A stretch of DNA of 64,000 bases. Source: an uncultured Gammaproteobacteria bacterium. Lineage in GTDB: Bacteria > Patescibacteriota > Patescibacteriia > CAIXNZ01. The stretch covers positions 131,954-195,953 of the forward strand of contig CAZPVP010000001.1 in assembly GCA_964590345.1 (NCBI GenBank), given 5' to 3'. Below the pieces are notes generated by a model. The model was not told the origin of the DNA, did not search any database, and saw only the letters and a program-made list of their open reading frames with translations. The translations under genes were made by a program, and so were the position numbers. Below are positions 1-34,550 of the stretch, piece after piece (the stretch's first letter is position 1; the number at the start of each line of letters is the position of its first letter).

Positions 1-719
1 AAAGGGAAAGATGAGGCTATTGGTGACGTATTCATATTAAAAGAAATCATCAATTCATCATTTAACATCGGAATTGTTGATTTAAAACCCTGTTCAGCCT
101 GATATAAAACTTTTTTAGTATAAATTAATTTACCGCCGAAGATTGACTCAATTTCCGAAGTTAATTCATCCAATTCTTCCAAATTATCAGAATAAATTGT
201 CACATATAAAGCAAATTGGAAAAATTTTTCGGTGCCTTGAGTTAAATCATCTCTTAATTTTTCTATATCTTGTAAAGCTGTTTCTACAATTGGATCTCTT
301 GGCGCACCTTTTTCTACATCTGACATTAATTGGGCTTGTAAATTGCCTACCTTTTTTTTCAACTGTTTTAAAATAATTTCTGACTTAACAGGATAAAAAA
401 ACATTGCTACGTCCAAAGTTTTGCTCAAATTAATTATCGGGGTAAACCAACCAACGCTAATATAACGAGGATAATTTAAAACAAAAAGCGTTCTAACATA
501 ATTATCAGCTAACTTTAAAAAACTTGGTTTAATTTCAAAGGCAGCAGGAGCAATTAAATCCTTAATATCAATCACCCCTTTTCTATAAATCCTTTCTTCC
601 TCTAAAGTAATTGCTGCTTCTTTAGCTATTGTTTCTTCTTTAGCCATAGTTTCTTCTGGTGTTGATTTTTTTTCAGCAGCTGTTTCTTTTTTAAATTGTG
701 AAGAAATTGGTAAAGGCAT
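1..719 (-). CDS. virB4: VirB4/TrbE-family conjugal-transfer ATPase, 5' portion; the gene continues beyond the window start.
   Basis: A minus-strand ORF starts at an ATG at about 719-717 and runs off the window edge, which is why it is absent from the ORF track. My translation is MPLPISSQFKKETAAEKK...DLIAPAAFEIKPSFLKLADNYVRTLFVLNYPRYISVGWFTPIINLSKTLDVAMFFYPV... This matches the conserved Gram-positive-type VirB4/PrgJ/TcpF N-domain block (AP..IE..P..L..G..Y.RTL.V..YPR.V..GWL). The Walker motifs would lie outside the window. Confidence 0.6.
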   Translation of the reverse strand, partial: MPLPISSQFKKETAAEKKSTPEETMAKEETIAKEAAITLEEERIYRKGVIDIKDLIAPAAFEIKPSFLKLADNYVRTLFVLNYPRYISVGWFTPIINLSKTLDVAMFFYPVKSEIILKQLKKKVGNLQAQLMSDVEKGAPRDPIVETALQDIEKLRDDLTQGTEKFFQFALYVTIYSDNLEELDELTSEIESIFGGKLIYTKKVLYQAEQGFKSTIPMLNDELMISFNMNTSPIASSFP

Positions 720-740
720 TTTGAAATAAAATAATAATTA

Positions 741-1394
741 TTATCTTGCTATATCTAACTTGCTAATATCGCGTAATTTTTGATTTTGTGCGGTTTTGGG
801 ATTATAAGTATTATAATAAAGCTCTATTAAACCTTGGGTATCCAAAACTGCTGTATCTAAACCTAATGATTTTAAGCTTGATTGTACATTAGCAATTCTT
901 AAATTTAATTCCTCTTTATATTCCAAAAATTTTTCTCGTTTAAGTTTAATTAACTGTCCAGATTTTAAAGTTTCTTTAAATCTTCCCCAAAAATTTTTAG
1001 CCTTAAATCCTGTTGGATTATAAGGTATAACTATAAAAAAATTTTTATTCATTATTTCGCCAATTTCAATTAATTCCTGAATATAATCCAAATAACCAGC
1101 AATTTGAACCCTTAACAGCTCATTAGTCTGTTTTTTATATGCTTCTCTCAATCGCTTTAGATAATCTTCTACATCAAGCTTTCTTGATTGTATAACTATT
1201 TGCAACGGATGATCTAATGTATTTAAAAATTCCATATAACTACCAATCAAAGCATTTTGCTCATCTTCAGATTTTAAGGCAAAGTTAATACTAGAACATA
1301 AAATTACCGCCCTTAATGTCCCGTCTTTAAGAATCACTGTATCCTCCTTAATTTCTGCTATATCCAAATATTTTTGAGTTGAAACTTTGGCCAT
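741..1394 (-). CDS. VirB4-like extreme N-terminal segment (217 aa). It is separated from the downstream VirB4 ORF only by an in-frame TAA-TAA.
   Basis: ORF-track protein. The stretch YLDIAEIKEDTVILKDGTLRAVILCSSINFALKSEDEQNALIGSYMEFLNTLDHPLQIVIQSRKLDVEDYL follows the VirB4/TraC N-terminal pattern (D..I.KDG.L.AV..L.GI.F.L.SEDE...L...L.LQ...R). It is in the same reading frame as the 1..719 ORF and ends 7 codons before that ORF's ATG. Confidence 0.5.
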   Translation of the reverse strand: MAKVSTQKYLDIAEIKEDTVILKDGTLRAVILCSSINFALKSEDEQNALIGSYMEFLNTLDHPLQIVIQSRKLDVEDYLKRLREAYKKQTNELLRVQIAGYLDYIQELIEIGEIMNKNFFIVIPYNPTGFKAKNFWGRFKETLKSGQLIKLKREKFLEYKEELNLRIANVQSSLKSLGLDTAVLDTQGLIELYYNTYNPKTAQNQKLRDISKLDIAR

Positions 1395-1493
1395 TACTAT
1401 AAATTTAATTATTAGTCAAAAACCGCTAATTTCTATTCATATTAAAATCTGTATGCTTCTCTGAATAAAAATCATTGGTTAATTTTTGTATTA

Positions 1494-1913
1494 TTATTCT
1501 TCTTCTTTATAAGCACCGCCAGTATTAACCACCAATGCTAAAGAAGAAAGCCGAGAAGTAGGCAGCGGTTCTTTTTTTATGAATTCTTTTTCAACTTCAG
1601 CTTTCTCTTTAGGGGGGAGAGATTTTACTTTTTCTTTCTTCCAAATTCTTAAACTGGGTCGTCTTAATGTTTGAATAATATTCAAAAAAAAGAAATGAAA
1701 AGGCATACCATTGACTTTAAAAAAAGCAAAAACGCCAAAAATAACAGTCACTATAACAACAACAACAACAAAAGTATTAAAATAAAAAATTTTATAAAAA
1801 ATAAAATCAAGCATACCAGCCACCAGCATAATTAAAAATTGTCTAGTCGTTATTGAGCCGATAATCTTGCTCTCAACATCAATAAATTGTGGCACTAAAA
1901 ATTGATCCGGCAT
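1494..1913 (-). CDS. PrgI/VirB3-like small T4SS membrane protein (139 aa)
   Basis: The N-terminus PDQFLVPQFIDVESKIIGSITTRQFLIMLVAG is followed by two hydrophobic helices. Size, topology and the TxRQ motif resemble the PrgI/VirB3 family. It lies immediately upstream of the VirB4 segments, which is the canonical VirB3-VirB4 order. Confidence 0.5.
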   Translation of the reverse strand: MPDQFLVPQFIDVESKIIGSITTRQFLIMLVAGMLDFIFYKIFYFNTFVVVVVIVTVIFGVFAFFKVNGMPFHFFFLNIIQTLRRPSLRIWKKEKVKSLPPKEKAEVEKEFIKKEPLPTSRLSSLALVVNTGGAYKEEE

Positions 1914-1916
1914 AAC

Positions 1917-3329
1917 TTAATATTTTAATTTTTTATTCAAATCCATAATTGCTTTAAATTCATCTAAAGAAAAGGTGTCTTTATCCTCAACGATTTTTTC
2001 AAATGATTTTCCTTCCTTAATTGCCTGATTCATGATATCAGCATAAATTTTATAAAGTGGGCTGCTTTTCAAAGCCTTAATCCCCTGCACTCTTTTAGCA
2101 ATTGACTCATCCTCCAAAAGATCCAGTTTAACTATTATTTTATTAACTGCTTCTTGAGGATCTTTGGACAGCCGACGAAAATCTTCTGTCTTAAAAACTG
2201 ACAATTCTTCAATCGGACCAACTAATTTTCTTGTAAATTTAACATCTTCAACTTTTGGCCTGCCTTCTGCTCCCTGATCAATTTTTTTAATTAAAGGCTG
2301 ATTAATTTCTTCTTGGCTTGATTCAGCTGGCTCTGGTTCAGCTGGCTCTGGTTCAGCTGGCTGTGATGCTGTTGATTGAGCTTGGGCTGAATCAGATTGC
2401 GGCGAACCAGATGGCTGAAAATTTGACTCGTTTTTTTCCTTTTCTATTGCTGGCGCTGGCGGAGCCAATTCCTCTTTGCTTTCCAAAAATTCTTCTTTTT
2501 CCTCAATTACCTCGGCCAATTCTTCTTTTTTGGGATGCACCCTTTCCTTGTCACCTAATTCTCTTTTTATTGCCTCTTTTTTGGCTAATTCTTCAAATTC
2601 CACCCCTCCTTTTTCTCTCTCAAGCAACTGATCAATAGTCACGTCTTCAGTAATTTTTTCTTTTTCTTGAGGAAGCTTAACTTTTGCTTCAACATCTATT
2701 TCTTCTTCTTCTGGCACTTTTTTTCTAAAGCTTGCCTCTTCTTTTTCTAATTCTTGAGTTATTAAATTAAGAACATCAATCCCCCTTTGAGCGTATTTTG
2801 TTTTTTTTCTTTTTAAAATATTAATTAAATCTTGAGCTTCTTGCTGATCAAAATCCAAACCGCCGACTTTATGGCTCTTGCTTAACACGGCTATTGTTTC
2901 ACTATCATCCCTTACATCACGGAACCAATTAAAAATAATATTTTCAAATCTTTTTTCAAATTTTTCATTAATTTTCAAATTGGCTTCTTTTTTTATTTCT
3001 TTAATGATTTCTTGCAAATTATTTTTTTCCTTATTTTCAGCTTTTGTTTCACTTTCTTCTGCTGCTTTTTGCGCTTCTTTGGGCAACAAAGGCAAAATTT
3101 TATCTATTAAATCATAAACAAAATCCAAAGCCACTGAAAAATCAAGATTAGCTTTTTCTTCTAATTCGCTGGCTAAATCATTTTTTTCTATTGCCCCCCC
3201 CAAATAATCTTCTATTGCTCCTATAATAATCTCCTCTTTCTTTTCTTCAATTTCATATTTTTTAAATAATCCCTCTATTTCAGTAGCAACATCTATCTCG
3301 TTTAAATATTTTTTGATTTTATTTGGCAT
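1917..3329 (-). CDS. Hypothetical acidic E/K-rich coiled-coil protein with a Pro-Ala-Glu repeat linker (470 aa), T4SS-locus associated.
   Basis: ORF-track protein with no TM segment. It contains a PAEPEPAEPEPAE low-complexity stretch. It is tightly packed, with a 3-nt gap to the downstream gene, in a co-directional operon. No recognisable catalytic motif. Confidence 0.6.
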   Translation of the reverse strand: MPNKIKKYLNEIDVATEIEGLFKKYEIEEKKEEIIIGAIEDYLGGAIEKNDLASELEEKANLDFSVALDFVYDLIDKILPLLPKEAQKAAEESETKAENKEKNNLQEIIKEIKKEANLKINEKFEKRFENIIFNWFRDVRDDSETIAVLSKSHKVGGLDFDQQEAQDLINILKRKKTKYAQRGIDVLNLITQELEKEEASFRKKVPEEEEIDVEAKVKLPQEKEKITEDVTIDQLLEREKGGVEFEELAKKEAIKRELGDKERVHPKKEELAEVIEEKEEFLESKEELAPPAPAIEKEKNESNFQPSGSPQSDSAQAQSTASQPAEPEPAEPEPAESSQEEINQPLIKKIDQGAEGRPKVEDVKFTRKLVGPIEELSVFKTEDFRRLSKDPQEAVNKIIVKLDLLEDESIAKRVQGIKALKSSPLYKIYADIMNQAIKEGKSFEKIVEDKDTFSLDEFKAIMDLNKKLKY

Positions 3330-3345
3330 AATTTATACTTTTTAT

Positions 3346-4377
3346 CTATAAAGGCCTTTCAAATAATAAACCGGCTTCAATTGCTAACAAGCTTTTTTTT
3401 ACAATATCACTAATTTTAGCCAAAATTTCATTATTAATTTCTTTGTTAGCTAATACTTCACTGGCATTAGTCAGGGCTTTTTCATAATAGTCTAATTTTG
3501 CTTCATTTAATTTCGCGTTTTTGGCTAACAATTTCTTCTGATAAGCTTTTAAAATACTGTTTGCTTTAAAAACGGCCTTTTTTAATAACTCCAAATTACT
3601 TTTATCTACCTTTTCTTTTAATTCCATAACCTTTTTAATCTCTTTGGGCCAAGTAAAATCTTTAGCTTCTCCTTGTTCAACTTTTATTAATTCTAATTCA
3701 GCCAAAATATCTCGATGCAAAACTTTTTGCACTGCCAAGTATTTTTCTCGAGCTTCTACAAATTTAACTAAATCTTCGGCCAAATCCAAGACCTTGTCTT
3801 CAGCTATTCCCTTATTTATCAACTTAACTTTCAATTTTTTTATTTTTTCTTCGCGATCCATTAATTCACCTGTTGCATAAACAAAATCACTCGGAGCTAA
3901 AATAGGATCTTCGGCTAAAATTTGATTTATCTCTTGCGCATCAATAATATCAGGGGGAGGAAATGAAAAATCAGGCGCTTCAGGCATTGTTTCATTATTT
4001 AAAAACCATTTTTTGCTTTCCTGATAATTTGAATTTAATTGGTCAAGGTTCATTACGTTTACTTGGGGCAAACTAGGCAATTTTTTAGACAGCTCTATTT
4101 TTTTCTGAACATTTTCTTTCAATTCCTTGGGCACCAAATTTTCATAAATTGAATGTAATTTTAAGCCAACGTTAATAGCCAAATTTTGATCCAATTTTAA
4201 TCGCTTTTCTAATTCATTGCTTAAAGCAAATAAAATTATTTTGCCTTCAAGTAAATCTTTAAAAATATCCTTAATTAAATCCTGTTTTGGGGCTGAAATT
4301 TTATATTTTTGAAATACTTTTTTTAAAGCTTTTTGAAAATCTTGAGAATTTAAAAATTCTTTTATCGCTTTATCCAT
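3346..4377 (-). CDS. Hypothetical coiled-coil protein (343 aa), T4SS-locus associated.
   Basis: ORF-track protein with no TM segment and long heptad-like K/E/L-rich regions. It sits between the VirB6-like gene and the acidic protein gene with 16-27 nt spacers. Confidence 0.6.
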   Translation of the reverse strand: MDKAIKEFLNSQDFQKALKKVFQKYKISAPKQDLIKDIFKDLLEGKIILFALSNELEKRLKLDQNLAINVGLKLHSIYENLVPKELKENVQKKIELSKKLPSLPQVNVMNLDQLNSNYQESKKWFLNNETMPEAPDFSFPPPDIIDAQEINQILAEDPILAPSDFVYATGELMDREEKIKKLKVKLINKGIAEDKVLDLAEDLVKFVEAREKYLAVQKVLHRDILAELELIKVEQGEAKDFTWPKEIKKVMELKEKVDKSNLELLKKAVFKANSILKAYQKKLLAKNAKLNEAKLDYYEKALTNASEVLANKEINNEILAKISDIVKKSLLAIEAGLLFERPL

Positions 4378-4404
4378 ATAAAATAATCTTAATTAAAAAT
4401 CATT

Positions 4405-7197
4405 CTATCCCTCGCCTTCTTGCTCTCCCTCCTCTTCCTTACCTGCCAATATATTGAAACTCCTAATTTCTGTAATTAAACGGTTTATTTCATTTTGCAT
4501 TGCTTCTCTGTTATCAGCCTTTCTGTATTCGTCTAAATTATCCCTTGCTTCATTTATTCTGCTTTCGTCAACCTTTACACCAGATTCTTTTAATTTATCC
4601 ATATAACCTTCTAATTGACGAAAAATGCTTTCTACTTGAAAACCTGCATCTTTTGTTGGTGTTTCAGCTTTAGAAATAACAGATAAGCTGGTATTTAAAT
4701 TATTTACTACATTATTAGAAACACTTCTAATATCTCCAGCTTGTTTTCGATCATAAGGAAACAAATTCCTTTCTCTTTCTTTAAAAGCGTCCATATCCTC
4801 TCGCTCTGCTGCTTCAGGGACAGTTGGCGGTGATGGAGGACCAACAGCTTGAATCTTATCCTTTATATTACTATTAAGCCGGCTGGGGTCCAAAGCTGTA
4901 AAGCCCTGCCCTTGACTGCCTTGTACTGGCCGGCCCGAAGCATCATATTCAGTAGTTAATTTGGCTCTTAAATTATTCAACTGAGCTAACTCTTGGTCAT
5001 CAATCAAATCCCGATCAGCAGTCGGATCAAATTCCTTATAATGTTCTAAGGCAGCTTTGCGATAATCTTCATGGCTTTCATCAGGTTTTCTGCGGCGGTA
5101 AACATCTTCTGCTAATTGAGCGCTGTCTTCAGTTAAAGTCGTCACTCTTTTTTCTTCACCGGTTATTGGATCGCGCTCTACTCTTTCTTCAGTTTCAAGC
5201 ATATCTTTTCTGGCATCACTTGAAGACACAATAAAATCTAATTTTTTAACCAGTCTATTGCGTGCCGGACCAGCTAAACTGCCAATAAATTGATTATTAG
5301 CTGCGCCGGTTAACTCTGCTACAGCATGTTTTTGCTGACGATTAATATCTTCTTGCCAAACTTGGCGGTCAGGATTCTTTTGCCAATTTTCCCGAGCTGC
5401 GCGCGCTTTTTCATCGCCAGCTGGATCACCAACACGAGGGGCATCAGGCACTTCACCAGGATTACCAAAGCCAACCCTGTTTGCTTGCTGGACAAAGCGG
5501 TCTTTTTGCGAATTTTTAACAAAATTCTTAACTTCAGAAAAATCATCGCGAGCCTGAAGTGTTTGCGTATCCGGATCCCAGCGCAAAGGAGAAACTGGCA
5601 CTCTGCTGCCTCCTGCCTGTTCATTTTTCCTTTCTAAATTTTCGCCAAAATCAATTTGTTCTGGCTCATTCATTTTTTTAAACATCCCGCCGCGACGCAT
5701 TTGGGCCACATGAGTAGGATTTAAGGCGCCTTGTTCAGCTAAACCATTGGCAAAAGCTTCCATTTTTGTTCTATCTTTCTGCTTTGCCGCTTTTTTCAAT
5801 CCTCGGCTCATAGCAACAGGGTCCTGATACTGGCCCGTCTTTTTTAATTCCTTTAACATGCCTTCTGATTGCTTCCTTTGAACTTGTCTTTTATCTAATG
5901 GTGTGCCGCTTAAAAAGGACCCAACCCTGGCCTTGCCACGCTCATAAGCTTCTCTTCTACCTCTTTTTGTTGCTAAACGCGCCGGACCGCCACGCCGATA
6001 AGCTCTTTGACCCATTCGCGCCATAGTCGGTCTAACGGCTTTAGTATAAGGAGCTTTAACCGCTGCTTTTGTGCCTGCCATTCCTCGCCTGGCTGCGCCT
6101 TCCAATTTTCGACCGCCCCAGGCCCTGCCTCGTTTAATTGCGCCGCTTGCCATACCTGAACCAACAACAGAAAACTGCCCGCTATATTGCAAACCAGCAA
6201 CTAATAAAATAGTGCTAATAATAAATGCTAAAATATTATTCCATTTACCAGCGGCAGAAAAAGTGCCTTGGGCTGTTTCTTGCGCCGCTTCTTGGCAATC
6301 AGCTACCTTTATAAAAGCGCAAGGATCTTTAGATAATTGAGCCATGGTCAAAAGTGACAGCCAAAGGAAAAAAGCCAAAAATGGTCCAATCATGCAATAT
6401 TTCATAAACATGCTCCACCAACGTTTTGATACAGATCCTATGCCTGTTTCTTCAAAAACATAAGCAAAAAAAGCCAATGGCGAAAAAACAATTAAAATCC
6501 ACAAAGCTATTATCCTGAAAACCAATTGGACTAAAAAGATTATCATAATTATCACCAATATAGTCGTATAAACTGCGCCCAATATACTGGCGCCAATTGC
6601 CTTGACCGCATCACCACCGCCTGAAACTTCAGCTTGTTCATTAGCTTTAAACCAATCTATCATGCCTGTGCCGCCAAAAATATTGCCTTCAGTAATGCCG
6701 ACAATGGAATTAACAAAAGTCAGCATTACTACCTGGAAAAAATCAATAATTATACCGCAAATAGTTCTGCTAAAATTAACTAAAATAGCCATAATCAAAA
6801 GCTTGCCTAAAAGCTTGTTCCATTGATATTTCTCTATTTTTAAAACAGTAACAAAAGCAATAAAAAGCAAACCCAGAATAAAAAACATATTAACTATATC
6901 GCGCATCATTTTCCAGCCATCTTTTACAAAAGGAGAATTAATAAAATCATTATATTGAGCAACAATGACAACCCCTTTCATAATTAAAACTAATAAATTA
7001 CCGCAAATCCAAATCCAAACCTTAACTAAAAAATTTATGCCCGCAACCATCCAGGTCAGAACATGACCAGTCCATTTAGAGGCTTCTTCTGCCGCCCAAA
7101 CTGTTTCAACATTAAAAAACAAACAGGCAATTACAACTAAAAAAACTGCTATCATTAAACTGGCTAAAATTTTTTTATTTTGAAATTTTTTCAGCAT
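4405..7197 (-). CDS. VirB6/TrbL-like polytopic membrane protein with a long hydrophilic C-terminal extension (930 aa)
   Basis: It has a signal/anchor sequence followed by about 7-8 hydrophobic helices in the first ~330 aa, for example WMVAGINFLVKVWIWICGNLLVL and ILVIIMIIFLVQLVFRIIALWILIVF. A ~600 aa charged tail follows. This topology is typical of VirB6/TcpH/PrgH-type channel subunits. It includes a striking Arg/Gly/Ala-rich basic segment: GRAWGGRKLEGAARRGMAGTKAAVKAPYTKAVRPTMARMGQRAYRRGGPARLATKRGRREAYERGKAR. Confidence 0.55.
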   Translation of the reverse strand: MLKKFQNKKILASLMIAVFLVVIACLFFNVETVWAAEEASKWTGHVLTWMVAGINFLVKVWIWICGNLLVLIMKGVVIVAQYNDFINSPFVKDGWKMMRDIVNMFFILGLLFIAFVTVLKIEKYQWNKLLGKLLIMAILVNFSRTICGIIIDFFQVVMLTFVNSIVGITEGNIFGGTGMIDWFKANEQAEVSGGGDAVKAIGASILGAVYTTILVIIMIIFLVQLVFRIIALWILIVFSPLAFFAYVFEETGIGSVSKRWWSMFMKYCMIGPFLAFFLWLSLLTMAQLSKDPCAFIKVADCQEAAQETAQGTFSAAGKWNNILAFIISTILLVAGLQYSGQFSVVGSGMASGAIKRGRAWGGRKLEGAARRGMAGTKAAVKAPYTKAVRPTMARMGQRAYRRGGPARLATKRGRREAYERGKARVGSFLSGTPLDKRQVQRKQSEGMLKELKKTGQYQDPVAMSRGLKKAAKQKDRTKMEAFANGLAEQGALNPTHVAQMRRGGMFKKMNEPEQIDFGENLERKNEQAGGSRVPVSPLRWDPDTQTLQARDDFSEVKNFVKNSQKDRFVQQANRVGFGNPGEVPDAPRVGDPAGDEKARAARENWQKNPDRQVWQEDINRQQKHAVAELTGAANNQFIGSLAGPARNRLVKKLDFIVSSSDARKDMLETEERVERDPITGEEKRVTTLTEDSAQLAEDVYRRRKPDESHEDYRKAALEHYKEFDPTADRDLIDDQELAQLNNLRAKLTTEYDASGRPVQGSQGQGFTALDPSRLNSNIKDKIQAVGPPSPPTVPEAAEREDMDAFKERERNLFPYDRKQAGDIRSVSNNVVNNLNTSLSVISKAETPTKDAGFQVESIFRQLEGYMDKLKESGVKVDESRINEARDNLDEYRKADNREAMQNEINRLITEIRSFNILAGKEEEGEQEGEG

Positions 7198-7212
7198 TTT
7201 AAAAAAATAAAT

Positions 7213-10200
7213 TTATGGACTAGACGCGCCACCTTCAGGTGATGAATTGCCTTCATGTTTGCAAACATCGCCATTCCAAGAACAACCAATTTTGTTTTCA
7301 CACTCTGTTTCATCTTTATAATAAGCGCAGGTATCAATCAAAAAAGGATAATAAGTCAAGCAAGCATAGGGTTGATAATCAGAAGTCGTTTCATAAAAAT
7401 CCTGGTAAATCCCGTCATAAAGCGGATTTGAAGTATCAAATTCTAAACACATACCTTCAAGGCCAAAGATTGCTTTTCTATTTTCTATATCTTTACAATT
7501 TGCGAGTTCTTCAGGATTGTCCGGATCATAATATGGATTACAGTCAGATGCCTTACTGCAAACTTGCCCCTTTGCTTCTTCAGGCATGGTACAAATTTTT
7601 GCCGGTGAATCACCTAAAGGAAAATAAGTTGTATAACCTCCTGCTTTAACTTGTTCATAAGAACAAGCAGTACCAATATCTTTTAAGTCTACAGATTGAC
7701 TATATAAATTCGGTATATCTTTATATTCTTGCTCTTCTGATAATTGATAAGGCAAGGGTGCGTTCTGTTCAGGGAATATTTTACAAATTGCTTCTGTATA
7801 ACGTTCATCTGCTGTCCTGCCCAATTTATTCAAATGAAAATATTGTTCAAATTCTTTATCATTTAACTCTGTCTCTAAAGGGAAACGATTAGGGATAGTA
7901 TAACCAGAGTAATCACCTGCGCGCCATTGCGTTAACTGCGTTAACGGGCCTATGCCGAAACGATAAATATAACCTTCTTTGTTATTATAATCGCTTATTC
8001 TTTTTATTGTCATTGGCTCTTCTTGCAAACTATATCGTACATTATCTTTTGGTGCTCTAACTAACTCGCCTCCCTGCCATTCAGTTAATAATCTAACGCA
8101 TTCACTGGCTTCGCGTTCAGCGCACAAATTAACTTGCTGACAAAAACCATTTTCGTCTTTTTCTGTGCAAACGGCCCATTGCTCACAATTACGGTCCTTT
8201 GAAACTTTTATTGTCTCAAAATTATTATTTGCTGTATTTAAAAATTCTACACAGCCATTATTCCAATCAACTTCTGTACAGCTTGACCTGTCAACATTAA
8301 CTCCTAAATCTATAACATAATAACTGTCTTCTGTATTGTCTTTGACTTCAACCTGGTCATAAATTATATAAGAATCGGGGCAGTTGTTTTTTTCAGCGCT
8401 TTTATTCCCATTAAGCGGGGCATATAAGATTAAATTGAAATCAAGCAAATCATCAAATTCGTTCCATGTAAGATCCTCTTCTTCGCAGCTTTTTTGAGAT
8501 TTATAATCAGAATTTTCACACTCACCAAGCGGCACCGAATATAAAATTTCTACTTTTTTCCAGTCAGTTTCAGCTGTATAAATAATTGGTTCGGCTCCCC
8601 TTTCTGAATCAACCGGCCTAAATTCAAAAGCTGCTTCTGGCATTGGGCAATCATTGCCCACGCCTTTTGAATCTTCATTCATTTTATAATAAAAAGAAAT
8701 TTTATAAGCTTTACCTTTTTCTAAACGGACAAGTTTTTGGCTAATACCATAAGGGGGGGCTTCACATTCTTCATATAAAGGCGTACTTGGGCAATCTTGA
8801 GCAGTTTCTTTTATTAATTTAATAGCTGTTTCACCGGCCTGGACATCATCTATTTCTTTATCCTGGCTGCCAGAACTAGCCGCTACAGTCACCCAATTTG
8901 ACAAACCACCAGTCGGATCACGGGTTTCAAAACCACCGTTAAAGACAAAATTAGGATTAATATCTAAAAATTCAGTGCAACCATTCCATTCTTCACTGCA
9001 TTTTCCGACATAACCTTTATATTTATTTGCCTCATAAACTTTATAAATACTAAACGGATAAGCTAAACATTGAGAATTAAGCCATTCGCCTCTTTTTAAC
9101 AAACAGGTTTCTTCATCTTTTATTTCAGGCAAAATTAAAGTGCATTGATCATATTTTTCACTCCACTCTCCGCCATTATCTTGACAATCCTCTATATTAT
9201 CAAAAAGCAAGCCGCCACAGCCAAGTTTAGGATTGCCTTTTTTAAACCAGCCTTCAACCTTTTGACCATTAATTAAATTTTGCTTATACTCGCAAAGTTT
9301 GGTTGGCTCAATTTTATAATACTCTGAAACACCCTCTTCATTAATTAATTCCGTACAACCTAAAGCGTCATGATTGCATAAAATGGCGTCTGGCACATTA
9401 ACATATTTGTCCGGATTATTCTTTAAATAAACTTCTTGAAAAGTTATATTCTCTACATCTTCAAAGTTTGGCTTGCCTAAACGCTGACAACCTTTATCAT
9501 TATCAGAACAGCTATAATTATCATTCAAAACTAAAGTGGTTAATTCATCTTCAGCTACTGAATAATCATCCAAAGGCGAGGCATTCTCATTATTAAAAGT
9601 CTGGCCATGTGGATTGACTGAATTTTTAGTATCAACTAAAATTTGACAACCGACTGCGCTTTCTCTACATAGATTAGTAAACGATCTAAGATAATGAGTC
9701 TGTCCTAAAATATCCTCATAAGCTTGACAACCTATCATTTCTCCCTTTTTAAATACGCCGTAAAATGTTCTATCACAGCTGTCTGGCGTTGACCAACTAT
9801 CTTTAATAGCATAAACATTATCTTTAACCACTTTTAATAAAATATTATCCAAATAAACTTTATTATCAAGGGAATCAAAGATTAAACTGTTATTTTGCAA
9901 ATCATCCCAGCTAACATAAACCGGCCCTAAAGTATAATTTTGCCAGTCCGTAGTCAATCTTACCGTTTGGTTCTCCAAGGTAGCGAAATTTTCCATGGTT
10001 GTAGCATTACCGTCATCTACTGCTGTGCTAAATCTAACTGCGATTACTTCACCTGCTGGATTGTCAGTCTTTGCCCAAAATGACAAAGTGTATAAATTAC
10101 CCCGTTGAATATCAATAAATTTATGAATACTGTTTACTTCTTGCTGAGGAATCAATAAAGAATGGCCGCCTACTGCTATTGATTCGCCAACTCTAGTTAA

Positions 10201-13200
10201 AGAATCATTTTCCTCTCCCTCCAAACCATTATACCAATCTAATTCAGCTGTGTCTTCAAAATTATCAAACATTTTTATATAAACATTATTGCCTTGATTG
10301 CCGACAAAAGCACGGCAGCCATTTGCTTCAGGACGGCAGGCAATGCCTTCATCTGGGATAGCGTCATAAAGGCAAGCTTCAATATCGCTCTGCCAGCGGC
10401 CATTAGTAGCTTCACAATTTTCTTCAGTTGCGTCAGTTTTTCTGTAAGGGTGGCAGTCTTCTGAAACCGAAACTGTTTTTCTAATATTGCGCCAATAATT
10501 GTTGCCATCATTGTCAAAAAAATTAATACACTTAAAATCTTGGCTGCCTAAAGTTACTCTACAATCGGCTGAACCATCAATTGTTTTTGGCGCACCAGTA
10601 TTCTCATCTTGCTGTAATTCATATTTAATCAATTGCGGCGGACCTGTTTCAGAGCCCTGCCAGGTGAAATAGGTCTTTTCTCCTAAGCCTAAATTAGGTT
10701 TAATGCATTGCCTTAAATAAGTATAATATCCAATGCCCTCGCCTCCTCTAGCCACTTCATCTAAATTAGTAAACTGCGAACAGCCAACTTCATCAAGCGT
10801 ACAAGCTGAAGCCGTATCTGGAATAAAATAATGATATAAAGGATCAGGTTCTGGATCATATAGCGCTGACTCTTGTTTATAAGTATCATAACCGACACAT
10901 TCAGCCGGACAATAATCATACGTGCTTACTACGCCAGGAATCGGAGGATCATTATTCAAAGGCGTAAAAAGCTGACAACCGACTTCTTCGGGTTGGCAAA
11001 CTTTCATATAATTTATACAGGCTGAATCATCAGGTGCATATTTATAACAAGCTGTTTTGTCAGCAAAGAATGCTGGTTTATCATCTTCTGGCTGATCCCA
11101 AAAATACCCATTGTCTTCACAAGCCTTTTTAGTTGTAAAATTTGCCATTACCGGCGGCGGATCACCCGGTCCATAGCCATGACAATTTAAAATTTCCGGC
11201 GGTTTCTTATAATAAATCTTATTATTTGATTCATAATCAGTATATCCGCTAATAAAATCTCTGTTTCTCACCTGATCAATTGTGTTTAGAGATAAATCAA
11301 GAGCATCTAAATAAACCTCTGCATCTGTTTCACCGCCTGGCAAATTAATTAAAATTTCAAGAGCTGTGCCTGGACGCGAAGTCATTAATGTGCTATTAAC
11401 TCGAGAATAGGCATTATTTAAGGAAAAACTGCCACTATTAAGCTCGTCAGGGAAAGTTTTTATCTTTTTTACTAAATTAAAAATAATTGGTTGATCCAGG
11501 GGCTGATTAGACTTTAAATAAGCTGTGGCTGTATAAGTGTCGCCTGCTCTTGTTAAATTCCCATCCTCATTAAATTTAAGGCTGTGAACGAGCTGCAATT
11601 CTTGATCAGCTGGAATTTGGCTAATATCCACTTGCAATTTACCTAAGCCACGATGTACATTGAAGCCATCTTTAGAAACAGAAGCTATGTCACTAAATGG
11701 CCCGTACCCCAGCCAATCGCCTAAAAGTTCTTGGCAATTCTCTTTGCTATAATCATAAATAAAAGCATCTTGACAACTCTTTAGCCAACTACCTCCATTT
11801 TGCACGCAAGTCTCTTCGCCTGCTTCAGTTAATTCGCTTGAAATCTGACCGTCAATCTGACATTCAGTCTGCCAAGTTCCATTATTATCTTCACAATCTG
11901 CTTGATTATCAAATTGCGGATTTCTGCAAAGGTTATATTTTAAAATACTTGTTAAACAATATTTTTTATATTCCGCATCTATGCCAAGTTTATCATTAGA
12001 ACAATCATCTTCTTTTACGTCATCATTTACCGCGCCTTCACAACGATAATCCCAAGTTCCCTCGCGAGCTAAACATTCTTCTTCTGTTACTGCATCTTCA
12101 ACACCGTCACAAAAACCCTGCCAAGTGCCATTATTAAAATTACACAATTCTCTTGTTTCATAACCATAATTTAAACAACTTTCATAATAAGTACCGTCAC
12201 ATTCATCTCTTTCTTCTACTTCTTTTTTAAGTCGCAAATCCCAATTAGCCGGGAAATAACCTTCTTTAGTGTATTCAAAGCTTGAATCAGCCACTAAATT
12301 ATTAGCCGAATCACGATATAAGAAAAATTCATTACAGCCTTCGTTTTCTTTTTGGCAGCTTTCAACATTATTGTTTAAATAAATCCTTTGATCATCCTGC
12401 CAAAGACCAGCTTTTGAACGATTAGTAGCATACCAACTGCAGCCTGCATTATGAGGCCCGCAGATTTCGCTGCCGCTTAGAGTATTTTTTAAATATGAAA
12501 TTAAACTAGTGCCTTCAGGCTCACTAATCGTATAAGTACGGCAGCTATTATATGCTTCAGGGCAAGAATCAGCGCCAAATTGCCAAGCATTTTTTTCTTT
12601 GACACAAAATCCATAATCTTCATTAACACAGCCTCCCTTGCCATCTTCCTCCAAGCAGGAAGAAAAATCAGGGCAGCGAGAGTACCTTTGGCCAGTTAAA
12701 TTAGACATTAAAATTTCACCGTAAGGCTCTAAATCAGTTTGCAAAGCGCATTTTGTTGTTGGAATTTTTAAAAGCCAATCAGGATCGACCAAATTACAAA
12801 AAGCTGACTCATCATCATCAAAATCACCGCAAGTTCCAGAACCAATTTTATCAAAACCATTAACGACATCAGCCAGAGTTGCTCCGACAACTTCATTTTT
12901 CTTTCTTATGTTATAATTTCTAATTTCTTCCAAACTGGCCCCAACGCCTGATGGCTTAAATAAACAATTTCTTAATCGTTCCGCAACAAAAGGTTTGGCA
13001 AGATCATTGTAGCCCGGTTGCTGTGCAGTTATATCTTCAAACTTGGCAAAATCAGGCTGGCCATCATTATCTTCATCATAAATATTTCTAAAATTACAGT
13101 CTCTAACTAATTCAATAGCCAATTCCAAACCCAAAGGCACAACACGAGCTTTTCTTAATTTTTTAATATTAGCCAAATGATAAGTGCCTGTTTCTACAGT

Positions 13201-15156
13201 CTCACCCCATGAAAAACCATAATCACCAACTAATTTCCTTTTTTCTAAAGCCTCACTTATTGTTAATTTATCATTAATTGCTAAAGCAAAATTTGAATCA
13301 ATAACATTATTATAAATATTTGGATTAACTTCCCCCTTAAGCTCTAATTGAAAATCAGACAATAAATTCACACTTTTATATGTAGCACTATAACTAAATT
13401 GCTGAGCCAACTTTTCAACATAACTTTGTATGCCTTCACTTGTCACTACTTCCTGGCTAAAAACATTAAAAGGCTGAACAGGATCCAAGGGTTCGCTTTC
13501 TGCTTCATCTGCGGCTTGTTTTTTTAACTTTGCGACTGAATACTCTTCTTGTTGCGATTCATTTAAGGCTGTTAATAACCTTTTTATCATGTGATTCCAA
13601 AGTGTGCCTGTAAAAACACCCAAAGCATCAGCTGCGATTTCTTTAGTATAAATTCTGGCATTATAAACCCCCTTGCTTGCTTTTAAATCTTCTTCTACTG
13701 AATCCCTAATAAGATTAGCAGGGGTTTGAATAGTATCAGTAATGCGATCCATGGCCCCTTTCCAGCCATCATTAATGGTTGCTTCAACGTGACGGTCAAT
13801 AAATTTATCAAGACCAACATCAACTATTTCTTTAGCTATATTTTCCCAAGCATTAAATTCATTGGCTTCAGGATTAAACATTCCCTTGCCTAATTGCCAA
13901 TTATATCTTTCACCGGCTTCAAAATTTTCAGGCGTTAATAATCTATCAAGACTGCTTTTTAAATAATCAAAGCTGCTTTTTATAGAATCAATAACACCTT
14001 CAATCAAGCCAATCTTGCGATTAACTTCATTTTCATAAATTTCAGCCAAATTTCTAGCGTCTTCTGGTATTGTGCCCAGGACCGGGCCTATGCCTAAACC
14101 CTGTAAAACCCTTGCGCAGTCGCCTTCACGCAATTCTATTGCGCTTTTGCCTTTACAGCCTGAATAAACAGATTTGGCTTCCTGTAAATTTTCCAGCCAA
14201 GGATCAATCCTGTTAAACCATTCTTCTTTAATTAAAGGGATATTTTCCGGTGCAATAACAAATTCACCAACTGATAATTCAACCGGTTCACTGCTTGCCA
14301 TTCCGCCTCTAATCGCTCTGCTATCATCTGATAATGTTTCTGTTAAATCATCCAGTTTTTCAGCATATACCTGCAAATTTTCTTGAACTGGCGGCATACT
14401 GCATTTGACTCGGCCTCCAGAAATAGACTCGCAATTTCCTGGTAACCAGTCCATCAACCGGTTATCCCATATCATAAGCTGCTCGTCATAAAGCGTAAAA
14501 TTTCGTAATCTTTCATTGCTCTCACTGACTGTCCCGCCTTCCTGAATTTGATAATTAAAAGAAAACCAATCTGACTCTGCCCATTCTTCCCAATGGCTAG
14601 TCAACTCTGAAAACGAACAATCAGGCGAATAGCCTTTAAAGCCTGGAAACATAGGCATATCCAAAGTTAAATCAATTGCTATTCTTGGATCAAGAGTGCA
14701 AATATCAATACCGGTTAAATCCTGCATCACGGTCTGAATCATATCACCAATTGCCGCATCAGCATAACCCTGAATAAATTGGTCAAAATTTGTAATAAAT
14801 TTAGGCGCACCGCCTTTATCTGAATGAGCCACCCATACAGCTGTCTGCTGGGCAATCGTATTTGCTAATCCGCCTAAAATATTTTTAAAAAACATTGCTT
14901 TTATTTCACTCAAAATTTTTGTGATTATCCTGTCAACTTTTTTTTCTGTTTCCTCTGCTGCTTGCTGACTCATATGAGCGCCTTTCATCACATTCTCGGC
15001 TGTCGAAAGAGGAACTAAATCTGGATTAGTTACAGGCGTTGCTTTTACCTCTTCAAGCTTAAAAAAGAAAACAGCATAAAAATTGCTAAAAACAAAAATC
15101 AGCGCAACAACTAAAATTATCAGCTTTTTAATTTTTATTTTTCTTGACTTAAGCAT
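7213..15156 (-). CDS. Giant secreted or membrane-anchored cysteine-rich protein (2647 aa), a putative surface/adhesin component of the T4SS-like locus.
   Basis: A single uninterrupted ORF with an N-terminal hydrophobic anchor (LIILVVALIFVFSNFYAVFFF). Paired cysteines recur along its length and there are many Asn-x-Ser/Thr sites. It is co-directional and immediately downstream of the VirB6-like gene (15-nt gap). Confidence 0.7.
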   Translation of the reverse strand: MLKSRKIKIKKLIILVVALIFVFSNFYAVFFFKLEEVKATPVTNPDLVPLSTAENVMKGAHMSQQAAEETEKKVDRIITKILSEIKAMFFKNILGGLANTIAQQTAVWVAHSDKGGAPKFITNFDQFIQGYADAAIGDMIQTVMQDLTGIDICTLDPRIAIDLTLDMPMFPGFKGYSPDCSFSELTSHWEEWAESDWFSFNYQIQEGGTVSESNERLRNFTLYDEQLMIWDNRLMDWLPGNCESISGGRVKCSMPPVQENLQVYAEKLDDLTETLSDDSRAIRGGMASSEPVELSVGEFVIAPENIPLIKEEWFNRIDPWLENLQEAKSVYSGCKGKSAIELREGDCARVLQGLGIGPVLGTIPEDARNLAEIYENEVNRKIGLIEGVIDSIKSSFDYLKSSLDRLLTPENFEAGERYNWQLGKGMFNPEANEFNAWENIAKEIVDVGLDKFIDRHVEATINDGWKGAMDRITDTIQTPANLIRDSVEEDLKASKGVYNARIYTKEIAADALGVFTGTLWNHMIKRLLTALNESQQEEYSVAKLKKQAADEAESEPLDPVQPFNVFSQEVVTSEGIQSYVEKLAQQFSYSATYKSVNLLSDFQLELKGEVNPNIYNNVIDSNFALAINDKLTISEALEKRKLVGDYGFSWGETVETGTYHLANIKKLRKARVVPLGLELAIELVRDCNFRNIYDEDNDGQPDFAKFEDITAQQPGYNDLAKPFVAERLRNCLFKPSGVGASLEEIRNYNIRKKNEVVGATLADVVNGFDKIGSGTCGDFDDDESAFCNLVDPDWLLKIPTTKCALQTDLEPYGEILMSNLTGQRYSRCPDFSSCLEEDGKGGCVNEDYGFCVKEKNAWQFGADSCPEAYNSCRTYTISEPEGTSLISYLKNTLSGSEICGPHNAGCSWYATNRSKAGLWQDDQRIYLNNNVESCQKENEGCNEFFLYRDSANNLVADSSFEYTKEGYFPANWDLRLKKEVEERDECDGTYYESCLNYGYETRELCNFNNGTWQGFCDGVEDAVTEEECLAREGTWDYRCEGAVNDDVKEDDCSNDKLGIDAEYKKYCLTSILKYNLCRNPQFDNQADCEDNNGTWQTECQIDGQISSELTEAGEETCVQNGGSWLKSCQDAFIYDYSKENCQELLGDWLGYGPFSDIASVSKDGFNVHRGLGKLQVDISQIPADQELQLVHSLKFNEDGNLTRAGDTYTATAYLKSNQPLDQPIIFNLVKKIKTFPDELNSGSFSLNNAYSRVNSTLMTSRPGTALEILINLPGGETDAEVYLDALDLSLNTIDQVRNRDFISGYTDYESNNKIYYKKPPEILNCHGYGPGDPPPVMANFTTKKACEDNGYFWDQPEDDKPAFFADKTACYKYAPDDSACINYMKVCQPEEVGCQLFTPLNNDPPIPGVVSTYDYCPAECVGYDTYKQESALYDPEPDPLYHYFIPDTASACTLDEVGCSQFTNLDEVARGGEGIGYYTYLRQCIKPNLGLGEKTYFTWQGSETGPPQLIKYELQQDENTGAPKTIDGSADCRVTLGSQDFKCINFFDNDGNNYWRNIRKTVSVSEDCHPYRKTDATEENCEATNGRWQSDIEACLYDAIPDEGIACRPEANGCRAFVGNQGNNVYIKMFDNFEDTAELDWYNGLEGEENDSLTRVGESIAVGGHSLLIPQQEVNSIHKFIDIQRGNLYTLSFWAKTDNPAGEVIAVRFSTAVDDGNATTMENFATLENQTVRLTTDWQNYTLGPVYVSWDDLQNNSLIFDSLDNKVYLDNILLKVVKDNVYAIKDSWSTPDSCDRTFYGVFKKGEMIGCQAYEDILGQTHYLRSFTNLCRESAVGCQILVDTKNSVNPHGQTFNNENASPLDDYSVAEDELTTLVLNDNYSCSDNDKGCQRLGKPNFEDVENITFQEVYLKNNPDKYVNVPDAILCNHDALGCTELINEEGVSEYYKIEPTKLCEYKQNLINGQKVEGWFKKGNPKLGCGGLLFDNIEDCQDNGGEWSEKYDQCTLILPEIKDEETCLLKRGEWLNSQCLAYPFSIYKVYEANKYKGYVGKCSEEWNGCTEFLDINPNFVFNGGFETRDPTGGLSNWVTVAASSGSQDKEIDDVQAGETAIKLIKETAQDCPSTPLYEECEAPPYGISQKLVRLEKGKAYKISFYYKMNEDSKGVGNDCPMPEAAFEFRPVDSERGAEPIIYTAETDWKKVEILYSVPLGECENSDYKSQKSCEEEDLTWNEFDDLLDFNLILYAPLNGNKSAEKNNCPDSYIIYDQVEVKDNTEDSYYVIDLGVNVDRSSCTEVDWNNGCVEFLNTANNNFETIKVSKDRNCEQWAVCTEKDENGFCQQVNLCAEREASECVRLLTEWQGGELVRAPKDNVRYSLQEEPMTIKRISDYNNKEGYIYRFGIGPLTQLTQWRAGDYSGYTIPNRFPLETELNDKEFEQYFHLNKLGRTADERYTEAICKIFPEQNAPLPYQLSEEQEYKDIPNLYSQSVDLKDIGTACSYEQVKAGGYTTYFPLGDSPAKICTMPEEAKGQVCSKASDCNPYYDPDNPEELANCKDIENRKAIFGLEGMCLEFDTSNPLYDGIYQDFYETTSDYQPYACLTYYPFLIDTCAYYKDETECENKIGCSWNGDVCKHEGNSSPEGGASSP

Positions 15157-15215
15157 GGTAAAAAAATAATTTTATAACTCTTTGATAATTAAACCAAATT
15201 GCTTATTTTTACGCC

Positions 15216-16022
15216 TCAATATGAATTAAGAATTTCTAAAAACGTGTTTTTTAAAGTCTGATCATCAATCTGATCCAATAAGTTTTTATCAATACCGCTT
15301 TTTTCCAGCTCCTCTCTTATTTGAGCCGGGGTTAAATTTTTTAGTTCTTCTATTGTTAATTCCTTTGCTTCAGGACTTAATTGCTCAGTTGTTTCTGTCC
15401 CTATTGACTCACCGCTGCTAAACTCTTCTAACATTTGCTGAAAATCCTGATCATAAATACCCATTGCCTCTAAATTCATATCCTCAGAAGAATATGTATC
15501 AATTAAATCAGTTATTTCATTTGCCGGTCCATTCATGTTTTGATTTAAAGATGTTCCTGCTGCTTCTTCTTCAAACTGCTGAGCAGTACAATCTTCCCCC
15601 TCCGGGCAATTGGGATCAGTGCCAGCCAAAATTTCCTGTTTATCCCAAATGCCATCACTGTCGCTATCCTCCAAATAAGGACTGGTTTGATAAATATAAA
15701 TCTCACTATAATCATCTAAACCGTCTAAATCACTATCCTGATTTTGCAATTTAATAACTTCTTCTTCTGGCCTTGCTTGATTTGTAGCGCTAACCTTATA
15801 TTTGTTCCGCAAGTCACTTCTTATATTATGCAAATAGCTGGGATACAAAGGCTCTTCTAAATTTTTTTTAAACTGGAGATAACCAAGGACTAAAGCAGAA
15901 ATTGTAATTAAAATTAAAAAAAATACAAAGAATTTCTCCATAGGAGTCTTTTCTATTTTGCTGCTTATTTCTTCGCTTTTTTCTTCAAAAAATTCTTTTA
16001 TTTTTTCTCGTCTGTCTGTCAT
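15216..16022 (-). CDS. Membrane-anchored acidic protein with TSP3-like calcium-binding Asp motifs (268 aa)
   Basis: One TM helix (FFVFFLILITISALVLGYLQF). After it come DSDLDGLDDYSE and DSDSDGIWDKQEILAGTDPNCPEGEDC, which fit the thrombospondin type-3 repeat pattern DxDxDG..D...DNCP. The C-terminus is acidic. Confidence 0.6.
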   Translation of the reverse strand: MTDRREKIKEFFEEKSEEISSKIEKTPMEKFFVFFLILITISALVLGYLQFKKNLEEPLYPSYLHNIRSDLRNKYKVSATNQARPEEEVIKLQNQDSDLDGLDDYSEIYIYQTSPYLEDSDSDGIWDKQEILAGTDPNCPEGEDCTAQQFEEEAAGTSLNQNMNGPANEITDLIDTYSSEDMNLEAMGIYDQDFQQMLEEFSSGESIGTETTEQLSPEAKELTIEELKNLTPAQIREELEKSGIDKNLLDQIDDQTLKNTFLEILNSY

Positions 16023-16927: not shown

Positions 16928-16996
16928 AAATAAAACTTATTAAAACAGGGGATTTCAGCATATTGCTTCACCGGCGAATTCTTTTGAATCAAAACT

Positions 16997-18168: not shown

Positions 18169-18172
18169 AAAA

Positions 18173-19801: not shown

Positions 19802-19807
19802 TATTAA

Positions 19808-20482: not shown

Positions 20483-20548
20483 AATTTAGTTTTTAAAGTT
20501 AAAAGTCTAAAGTTGAAAGTTAATTTTACTTTATAACTTTATAACTTT

Positions 20549-21643: not shown

Positions 21644-21679
21644 AACTAGTTAAAAATATATAGTTAAAAAGTTATAAAG

Positions 21680-22225: not shown

Positions 22226-22232
22226 AAATAAA

Positions 22233-23504: not shown

Positions 23505-23576
23505 ATAACATCCCCTTAACTAAAGACAGGAAAAAATAATTTCTTCCCGTCTTTTTTAAAAAAATATTTATAAATT

Positions 23577-23909: not shown

Positions 23910-23964
23910 ATAAATTTTCCTTAAATAACTAAAATCTAAAAGATTTTAGCTAAATTAGTAATCA

Positions 23965-24270: not shown

Positions 24271-24271
24271 T

Positions 24272-24526: not shown

Positions 24527-24529
24527 ATT

Positions 24530-34533: not shown

Positions 34534-34550
34534 AAAATAAATTTTAGAAT

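Follow-up and report, generated by a model that had tools for sequence, protein, structure and literature searches.

Locus A, at positions 1..16022 of a 64,000-nt stretch of contig CAZPVP010000001.1 (hereafter the window; all coordinates are window positions), encodes the core of a type IV secretion system (T4SS) behind the genes for a TSP3-like protein and a giant Cys-rich protein of 2647 amino acids (aa). We consider it probable that the locus is a chromosomal, vertically inherited, non-conjugative T4SS of Patescibacteria whose outward, host-contacting part is the giant. Our comparisons establish the identity of the T4SS core, its chromosomal and non-conjugative nature, and its conserved genetic coupling to the module formed by the TSP3-like protein and the giant. 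The core consists of a VirB6-like protein, a VirB3/PrgI protein, a TrsD-like protein, and VirB4, an arrangement typical of monoderm (MPF-FATA-like) systems. An earlier note on this DNA had proposed a minimal, relaxase-less T4SS of the Gram-positive or candidate phyla radiation type (VirB3-VirB4-VirB6) coupled to a giant and a TSP3 anchor, and the evidence for PrgI, VirB4, and the VirB6-like protein, together with the conserved coupling, upholds that proposal.

Eight tightly packed open reading frames (ORFs), all on the minus strand, fill Locus A, separated from 5′ to 3′ by 59, 15, 27, 16, 3, 99, and 21 nt:

16022..15216, minus strand: TSP3-like bitopic protein, 268 aa; first of the eight genes
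15156..7213, minus strand: giant Cys-rich protein, 2647 aa; second gene, with a CBM_4_9 domain
7197..4405, minus strand: extended VirB6/TrbL-like polytopic protein (moderate confidence), 930 aa; third gene, assigned by fold match
4377..3346, minus strand: soluble protein, 343 aa; fourth gene, paralogue of the 470-aa protein
3329..1917, minus strand: soluble acidic protein, 470 aa; fifth gene, directly upstream of PrgI
1913..1494, minus strand: PrgI/VirB3-type protein, 139 aa; sixth gene, Pfam PF12666
1394..741, minus strand: TrsD/TraD-like protein, 217 aa; seventh gene, NCBIfam NF041427
719..1, minus strand: 5′ part (239 codons) of a VirB4-family ATPase gene, matching NCBIfam VirB4 models; cut by the window edge

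The gaps of 3 to 99 nt agree with the co-directional, tightly spaced minus-strand string described in the earlier note. That description needs correcting on gene number, which was given as nine where the ORF inventory gives eight, and on order: it placed the VirB6-like gene first and the TSP3-like gene after the giant, whereas the actual 5′-to-3′ order is TSP3, giant, VirB6-like, soluble pair, PrgI, TrsD, VirB4. GC content across Locus A is 0.29 to 0.39, similar to the remainder of the window. An alternative genetic code was considered and excluded; the long ORFs read through with translation table 11, and the stops TAA TAA stand between the TrsD-like and VirB4 genes. Promoter and terminator scans of the locus were uninformative, with terminators at chance level and 81 promoter-like sites against 59 expected in this AT-rich DNA.

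Components of the T4SS core

A genome scan anchored on VirB4 found at least 363 relatives, all labelled as Patescibacteria-type or obviously mislabelled metagenome-assembled genomes, and 80 loci were kept for comparison (the related loci). In nearly all 80, the order is VirB6-like, zero to five variable genes, a homologue of the 470-aa protein, PrgI, TrsD, and VirB4. The genomes of the related loci carry the labels Uhrbacteria, Falkowbacteria, and Magasanikbacteria, which we take to correspond to GTDB class ABY1. Several loci (L005, L007, L011, L014, L018, and others) are deposited as “uncultured Gammaproteobacteria bacterium”; these labels look wrong, and the gene content and closest relatives are Patescibacteria-like.

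At the downstream end of the string, the 719..1 ORF matches the NCBIfam conju_CD1110 VirB4 model (E = 1.2e-22, profile positions 165 to 382 of 752), VirB4_plasma (E = 2.5e-20), and TIGR00929 (E = 7.8e-5). These matches fall in the N-terminal domains of the models; the ATPase domain lies beyond window position 1. Exact-sequence look-ups of the 217-aa, 139-aa, and 930-aa proteins, meant to reach past that point, found no record, and the remaining VirB4 sequence was read from orthologous loci, not from this contig. The earlier note had named a continuation without Walker A and B motifs as the finding that would speak against VirB4. The 79% identical orthologue in locus L001 has both, as GAGKS and VIDEAW, in a full-length VirB4 of 648 aa that also matches Pfam P-loop_TraG (1e-27), and the L081 orthologue likewise has the N-terminal domain and a Walker A/B P-loop domain. 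Among curated VirB4 models, the best matches are VirB4s of monoderm integrative and conjugative elements (ICEs), and the closest relatives are all from Patescibacteria genomes.

The 217-aa protein encoded just upstream matches the NCBIfam TrsD/TraD model NF041427 (E = 8.6e-9) and also aligns to positions 103 to 257 of VirB4_plasma and 2 to 95 of conju_CD1110. Pfam TraC_F_IV is matched over positions 20 to 183 (E = 1.2e-3), and orthologues carry a precomputed match to the TraC-like family PF26593; by sequence, the protein resembles the extreme N-terminal part of VirB4/TraC ATPases. Its gene ends in TAA TAA, and VirB4 begins 21 nt further on. What had been taken for a VirB4 ATPase in two segments is in fact two genes. 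TrsD-like proteins (192 to 241 aa) and VirB4 (∼640 aa) are encoded separately in every related locus listed, and full-length TrsD-like homologues were extracted from 76 of the 80. Because the same split occurs in essentially all 80 related loci, it does not represent a broken gene, and a split or pseudogenized VirB4 was excluded by this conserved two-gene form.

The assignment of the 139-aa protein to the PrgI/VirB3 type, already made in the earlier note, is confirmed by a Pfam PF12666 match above the cutoff (E = 4.5e-10, 40.4 bits versus 27). The protein has two adjacent transmembrane (TM) helices, at residues 17 and 36, and is conserved in 71 related loci.

The 930-aa protein combines a conserved helical membrane domain (residues ∼40 to 345) with a variable hydrophilic domain (∼346 to 930). 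The hydrophilic ∼580 C-terminal residues, which vary among relatives, begin with a very Arg/Lys-rich stretch, and because of this strongly basic start the C-terminal domain is probably cytoplasmic. The protein itself has no direct match in Pfam or NCBIfam scans. Its family comprises 287 homologues at E ≤ 1e-5, and one relative, P0117, which aligns to the family profile with an hhalign E value of 4e-68, falls just short of Pfam TrbL over the conserved membrane domain (E = 3.4e-5, 24.1 bits versus a cutoff of 25.9). TrbL was reached by only 1 of 46 members of the family, at E = 1.8e-4. When the family profiles were searched against PDB sequences, the only matches were low-complexity or coiled-coil noise. 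Precomputed PF19590 matches on some homologues were not reproduced with current Pfam and were not used as evidence.

An AlphaFold model of the 930-aa protein built from 63 sequences has an overall predicted local distance difference test score (pLDDT) of 76, with values above 90 over most of residues 50 to 340. The top four Foldseek matches in the PDB (8rtd_L, 8rt9_F, 7o3v_J, and 7o3v_F) come from R388 entries titled TrwJ/VirB5-TrwI/VirB6, with probability 1.00, E values of 0.007 to 0.016, and TM-scores on the target of 0.42 to 0.52 over ∼290 columns. The next match has E = 0.8, so that the R388 chains are the only specific PDB fold matches. We took these chains to be TrwI/VirB6 because of their modelled length of 260 to 272 residues and the alignment of membrane helices. 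With moderate confidence, then, the model identifies the 930-aa protein as a VirB6/TrbL-type polytopic membrane protein, as the earlier note had suggested and as the R388 TrwI/VirB6-type fold match and the family member just under the TrbL cutoff both favor. Its long hydrophilic C-terminal domain would make it an “extended VirB6” as that term is used in PMC12857230. The position of its gene is conserved in at least 45 related loci.

Between the VirB6-like and PrgI genes lie two soluble proteins that share a homologous N-terminal domain of ∼85 to 95 aa, with 33% identity over residues 1 to 85; the 343-aa protein matches a profile hidden Markov model (HMM) of this domain with E = 7.9e-15. They had been described as two soluble acidic proteins. 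Both are indeed soluble, and the 470-aa protein is acidic (net charge −29), but the 343-aa protein, which has no TM segment, is about neutral (+3). In 10 related loci, two ORFs match the N-terminal domain HMM, one of 300 to 410 aa adjoining one of 415 to 570 aa. Homologues of the 470-aa protein number 67 across the 80 related loci, directly upstream of PrgI, and have a conserved C-terminal domain of ∼115 aa with the motif GPIEEL..DFRRLS...GIKAWR.SP. Neither protein has a match in Pfam or NCBIfam scans, and a profile of the C-terminal domain found nothing above noise in the PDB or Pfam. The pair probably represents class-specific, cytoplasmic parts of the machine.

Directly after VirB4, 63 of 65 related loci encode a further bitopic protein, mostly of 180 to 240 aa (L001 12025..12687), with an N-terminal TM segment and a C-terminal domain bearing the motifs FAERFGSYSNQ and WKVD. 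A profile of this protein gave weak hints only (SnoaL_4 in three members, VirB8 in two members at E = 0.07) and no PDB match; its topology is VirB8-like, though the evidence for a VirB8 identity is weak. In L001 it is followed by a ComFC-like gene and then RecG; the L081 and L082 loci reach only the ComFC-like gene.

The TSP3-like protein, the giant, and their coupling to the T4SS

The first gene of the string encodes a protein whose short cytoplasmic N terminus leads into a single TM segment (residues ∼26 to 46) and then into an acidic outside part (net charge −36) that contains two exact DxDxDGxxDxxE loops, predicted to bind calcium, at residues 96 and 119. Its Pfam TSP3_bac match is under the cutoff (E = 9.6e-4, 19.4 bits versus 25). 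Over 57 aa it is 46% identical to a paralogue in the same window (33228..33959), which matches TSP3_bac at 7.8e-24. In seven of nine related loci in which the gene upstream of the giant was inspected, Pfam TSP3_bac is on record for that gene; the record is marked “faint” in five of them and carries no such mark in L081 and L083. The protein thus looks like a TSP3-like, calcium-binding anchor, and the TM-anchored, acidic, TSP3-like protein of the earlier note stands on its one TM segment and two canonical loops, even though the Pfam score is below the cutoff.

The giant has a net charge of −200 and a single N-terminal hydrophobic segment (a signal peptide or an anchor) with a possible cleavage site at VKA|T. 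Residues ∼40 to 750 are mostly helical in a low-confidence model, and from ∼760 onward the protein becomes a Cys-rich body that includes eight C-x6-GC-x2-aromatic motifs and five C-x3-NGxW-x3-5-C motifs; in all, it contains 94 Cys (3.6%). Its only Pfam domain is a CBM_4_9 carbohydrate-binding module at residues 1672 to 1742, also present in 9 of 10 close homologues. No LPxTG motif, C-terminal hydrophobic anchor, PrgB-type adhesin domain, or further TM segment was found in the giant, and Pfam and NCBIfam scans detected no known T4SS domain in it. An AlphaFold model of residues 1 to 960, based on a 10-sequence alignment, reached a pLDDT of 48.7, and Foldseek with this model gave no match below E = 2.8. 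Because of the hydrophobic N terminus, the 94 Cys, and CBM_4_9, the sequence points to a disulfide-stabilized, glycan-binding protein outside the cell. The earlier description of a secreted Cys-rich giant is thus supported in its hydrophobic segment and its Cys content, with either a signal peptide or an anchor at the N terminus.

Giants of this kind form a large family. Full-length orthologues are 2600 to 2850 aa long and 41 to 57% identical, and an exhaustive search with residues 1 to 960 recovered 1122 cluster representatives at E ≤ 1e-3, 1027 at ≤ 1e-10, and 186 at ≤ 1e-30, nearly all of 2000 to 3800 aa. The collected family sequences have a median length of ∼2680 aa and a median Cys content of 3.9%, and share a common core at ∼755 to 960 in addition to stretches at ∼560 to 700 and at the N terminus.

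The coupling of this family to the T4SS was examined from both sides. Starting from VirB4, a Cys-rich ORF just upstream of the VirB6-like gene, running off the start of the locus, matches C-terminal parts of the giant family in 27 of the 40 loci where upstream sequence is visible. For the reverse check, nine family members were examined in their own contigs and confirmed by tblastn. A TSP3-like homologue lies directly upstream of the giant in all nine (tblastn E values of 1e-15 to 1e-92), at distances ranging from an overlap to 54 nt. VirB6-like, PrgI, TrsD, and VirB4 follow directly downstream of the giant in six; in a seventh, L083, the VirB6-like gene follows and the contig then ends. The TSP3-like protein and the giant therefore form a fixed two-gene module that usually, though not always, heads the T4SS operon. 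Conservation of gene order, which the earlier note had put forward as a check, is accordingly found across many genomes for the TSP3, giant, and VirB6/VirB4 coupling.

The same data bear on a reading that we consider unlikely, in which the T4SS core is real and the TSP3-like protein and giant are general surface proteins (an S-layer-like coat or a generic adhesin) that function independently and have merely kept an inherited order between ksgA and the T4SS genes. It draws on the TSP3 and giant pairs without adjacent T4SS genes in L084 and L089, on other Cys-rich giants and TSP3 paralogues at a separate locus of the same window, and on the lack of a detected T4SS domain in the giant. Against it stands the spacing of the genes, with the giant’s stop 15 nt from the VirB6-like start here and 2 to 139 nt in seven other loci. 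Adjacency has also been kept while the giants diverged to 26 to 33% identity and the genes between VirB6 and PrgI were reshuffled. Its occurrence in seven of nine family loci and 27 of 40 VirB4 loci is, as we judge without calculation, far above chance for a gene with one or a few copies in a genome of about a thousand genes.

Several observations nevertheless weigh against a host-contacting T4SS built around the giant. The link between the giant and the T4SS is one of gene order, and its conservation could partly reflect shared ancestry within one class. Two of the nine family loci, L084 and L089, have the TSP3 and giant pair away from VirB6 and VirB4, and 13 of 40 VirB4 loci have no visible giant in the 1.5 to 4.5 kb inspected upstream of the VirB6-like gene; because of these loci, we regard the coupling as frequent and not obligatory. 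Large Cys-rich surface proteins are also encoded at 36403..41217 and 34551..36275 in the same window, which makes proteins of this type common in the genome. For the giant’s N-terminal half, the model is poor (pLDDT 48.7) and gave no fold match. Within the core, the VirB6 assignment relies on weak scores (Foldseek E values of ∼0.01, Pfam below the cutoff) and on a deduced identity for the matched chains, and the ATPase domain of VirB4 falls outside the window.

Gene content around the giant varies among relatives. Many related loci (L009, L021, L022, L025, L031, L036, L044, L047, L061, and L067) have an extra protein of 160 to 290 aa with two or three TM segments between the giant and the VirB6-like protein, which is absent from the window. 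These proteins were considered as pilins and set aside; 0 of 10 match any Pfam family. In L088 (GCA_020061045.1), a 3116-aa family member at 5954..15304 has Dockerin_1 on record besides CBM_4_9, and VirB4 is closely followed in the same locus by a gene with a T4SS_pilin domain (marked weak). L084 (GCA_022843095.1) has a VirD4-like gene (TrwB_AAD_bind, TraG-D_C) at 30152..31457; it lies downstream of the giant at a distance of ∼9 kb, with NusA, YidC, and SecDF in between.

Chromosomal setting, known systems, and possible functions

Pfam scans of the scanned window ORFs of at least 100 aa gave no relaxase, VirD4, VirB1, VirB8-11, or integrase family, in line with the absence of a relaxase, a coupling protein, and VirB1/VirB8-11 reported in the earlier note. 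The neighboring genes at 16079..25225, judged by eye and from the Pfam records of syntenic L081 genes, include ksgA, a ROK kinase, an amylase, a glycosyltransferase, RF2, and HtrA, and the rest of the window is housekeeping in character (NrdD/NrdR, FtsZ/FtsA, YbeY, HisRS). The same housekeeping neighbors occur at the orthologous loci L081 and L082, and this synteny excluded a mobile element.

An alternative origin for a relaxase-less locus is decay: Locus A would then be what is left of an integrated conjugative element, no longer working after the loss of its relaxase and coupling protein. VirB4, PrgI, and TrsD are indeed most similar to conjugation components of Gram-positive and Mycoplasma ICEs, and neither a relaxase nor VirD4 turned up in the window Pfam scans. 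Yet all eight ORFs are intact, the GC content of 0.29 to 0.39 is like that of the rest of the window with no composition shift, and neither an integrase nor repeats were found. The same gene set occupies the same housekeeping position in at least 80 species-level genomes with VirB4 identities of 60 to 79%, and the T4SS is essential in a cultivated relative (PMC10633639). We assign this origin a negligible probability; because the locus is conserved across genomes, it is effectively refuted.

The T4SS core was already known, having been described for the phylum in 2025 by Quinonero-Coronel et al. (PMC12102498). That study places the Patescibacteria T4SS in a distinct VirB4 clade related to monoderm MPF-FATA and describes abundant TrsD next to VirB4, PrgI-type VirB3, VirB6, and arrays of VirB2-like pilins, with VirB8 rare and mostly in ABY1, almost no relaxases, and ksgA nearby. 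Locus A is like these systems in having a separate TrsD-like gene before VirB4, a PrgI-type VirB3, a VirB6-like protein, and no nearby relaxase or coupling protein, in its chromosomal location next to ksgA, in the comF and recG genes downstream in ABY1-type loci, and in the presence of VirB2-like pilins in the genome. It differs in that the TSP3-like and giant genes head the operon and recur with it, and in that the pilin genes are 34 kb off and fused to large adhesin-type domains; here, too, a soluble pair without a Pfam or NCBIfam family separates the VirB6-like protein from PrgI. The same study reports that no adhesins were detected and mentions neither a giant nor a TSP3 partner. What has apparently gone undescribed is the TSP3 and giant head of the operon in many related genomes.

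The best VirB4, TrsD, and PrgI matches tie Locus A to MPF-FATA systems (pGO1/pSK41 Trs, pCF10 Prg, pIP501 Tra, CTn2 CD1110, and Mycoplasma ICE), with which it also shares a lack of outer-membrane core components. Unlike them, it lies outside any mobile element and has a VirB6-like protein extended to 930 aa, and no relaxase, VirD4, VirB1-type hydrolase, or LPxTG adhesin was detected. The VirB5-VirB6 stalk of R388 and Agrobacterium provides the only specific PDB fold match of the 930-aa membrane domain. In that system an exported protein, VirB5, is mounted on the VirB6 platform, finishes at the tip of the pilus, and makes contact with the recipient cell (Mace et al. 2022, reviewed in PMC12624023). 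The giant showed no sequence or fold similarity to VirB5, is more than 10 times larger, and is Cys-rich; that it might fill the place of VirB5 on the VirB6 platform is speculation by analogy. Omnitrophota offer another likeness, compared by description: these ultra-small, host-dependent bacteria also encode very large proteins near a multi-subunit secretion or pilus system, and the preprint of West-Roberts et al. 2023 (10.1101/2023.11.21.568195) describes giant genes in conserved proximity to secretion systems.

In the mechanism that we favor for Locus A, the giant would be exported by the Sec pathway via its N-terminal hydrophobic segment. Once outside, it would be stabilized by numerous disulfides and, jointly with its TSP3 partner, by calcium. 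It could then act as an adhesin or docking structure that reads host surface glycans through its CBM module. At the contact site, the VirB6 platform, VirB3, and the TrsD/VirB4 motor would move macromolecules across the epibiont envelope, assisted by the two paralogous cytoplasmic proteins, and the core probably also assembles the VirB2-like pilins encoded 34 kb away. Transport could run either way, with effectors moving out or host nucleic acid moving in. For comparison, in the single species tested, a Saccharibacterium, epibiotic growth required the T4SS (Wang et al. 2023; PMC10633639), and reviews, PMC11665869 among them, state that the function of Patescibacteria T4SSs is unknown.

The direction and substrate of transport are the subject of a further, tentative proposal, which is compatible with the mechanism above and to which we give a limited probability: Locus A may be a ComB-type machine for nucleic-acid uptake that hands host material to ComFC and RecG, with the giant holding the host close. 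The only hints of nucleic-acid uptake are the comFC and recG genes downstream in orthologous loci, along with precedent. The ComB system of Helicobacter pylori has a VirB-type core that works with neither a relaxase nor a coupling protein and has a functional connection to ComF-type competence proteins; it is a diderm system with VirB7-10. Locus A resembles ComB in that core and in a possible link to ComF-type proteins, and differs in that ComB is diderm and in that the comFC neighbor is known from orthologous loci alone. The ComB precedent is cited in PMC11665869, which also proposes uptake as a possibility for Saccharibacteria. Consistent with such a role, the window Pfam scans found no relaxase or coupling protein nearby, and orthologous loci have ComFC-like and RecG genes after VirB4, as noted for ABY1 in PMC12102498, where the T4SS lies close to comF, recG, and radA. 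For another organism in the phylum, a 2026 preprint describes feeding on the RNA of the host and possible T4SS pili where the two cells meet. On the other side, comFC and recG are outside the window and linked to Locus A by orthology only, and no DNA-binding component was identified in the locus. Moreover, the Saccharibacteria T4SS is essential and comEC dispensable (PMC12857230), and because comEC is dispensable, classical competence does not explain that essentiality.

A bolder version of the host-contact reading, to which we attach a rather low probability, would make the giant and its TSP3 partner a structural part of the T4SS, docked on VirB6 in VirB5’s place at the tip of or beside a VirB2-like pilus. 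Together with the pilin-fused giants, this would amount to a new kind of outer apparatus, a 300-kDa disulfide-knotted, glycan-binding “grappling head” with which epibionts seize and open the host envelope.

For the T4SS of Locus A, the basic classification is unchanged, and our finding adds detail to a known system, not a new kind of system. If one major class consistently encodes the TSP3 and giant family together with VirB6 and VirB4, the members of this family become candidates for host recognition and docking; under the same condition, the giants and their TSP3 partner could mark host range and serve as tagging targets for cryo-tomography. Further candidate class-specific machine parts are the soluble pair and the pilin domains fused to adhesin modules at the second locus.

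A second surface locus with pilin domains

Positions 1..16022 contain no VirB2-like pilin gene, but genes with such a domain lie 34 kb away in the same window, where they adjoin another group of genes for surface proteins:

41256..55825, minus strand: three tandem genes (696, 382, and 3771 aa), each with an N-terminal VirB2-like T4SS_pilin domain (Pfam PF18895)
32035..41217, minus strand: second surface-protein gene cluster, directly adjoining the pilin-domain genes

The three tandem genes match PF18895 with E values of 9.2e-11, 3.2e-9, and 3.6e-7, and an alignment of their N termini displays a signal peptide ending in ANA|G followed by two hydrophobic helices. Behind the pilin domain, the 696-aa and 3771-aa proteins continue with a Pro-rich linker and then adhesin-type domains, which in the 3771-aa protein include Laminin_G_3 (1e-51), TIG (4e-33), and Big_5. 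These genes are the probable missing pilin component of the Locus A T4SS. In the portions of the T4SS literature examined, no fusion between a T4SS pilin domain and a giant, adhesin-like body is mentioned.

The adjoining cluster holds two TSP3-like paralogues of the Locus A anchor, of 354 aa and 243 aa (the latter with the TSP3_bac match at 7.8e-24), alongside three Cys-rich proteins (178, 574, and 1604 aa), of which two have Lcl_C domains. The opposite flank of the pilin genes has a signal peptidase I gene (58214..58837).

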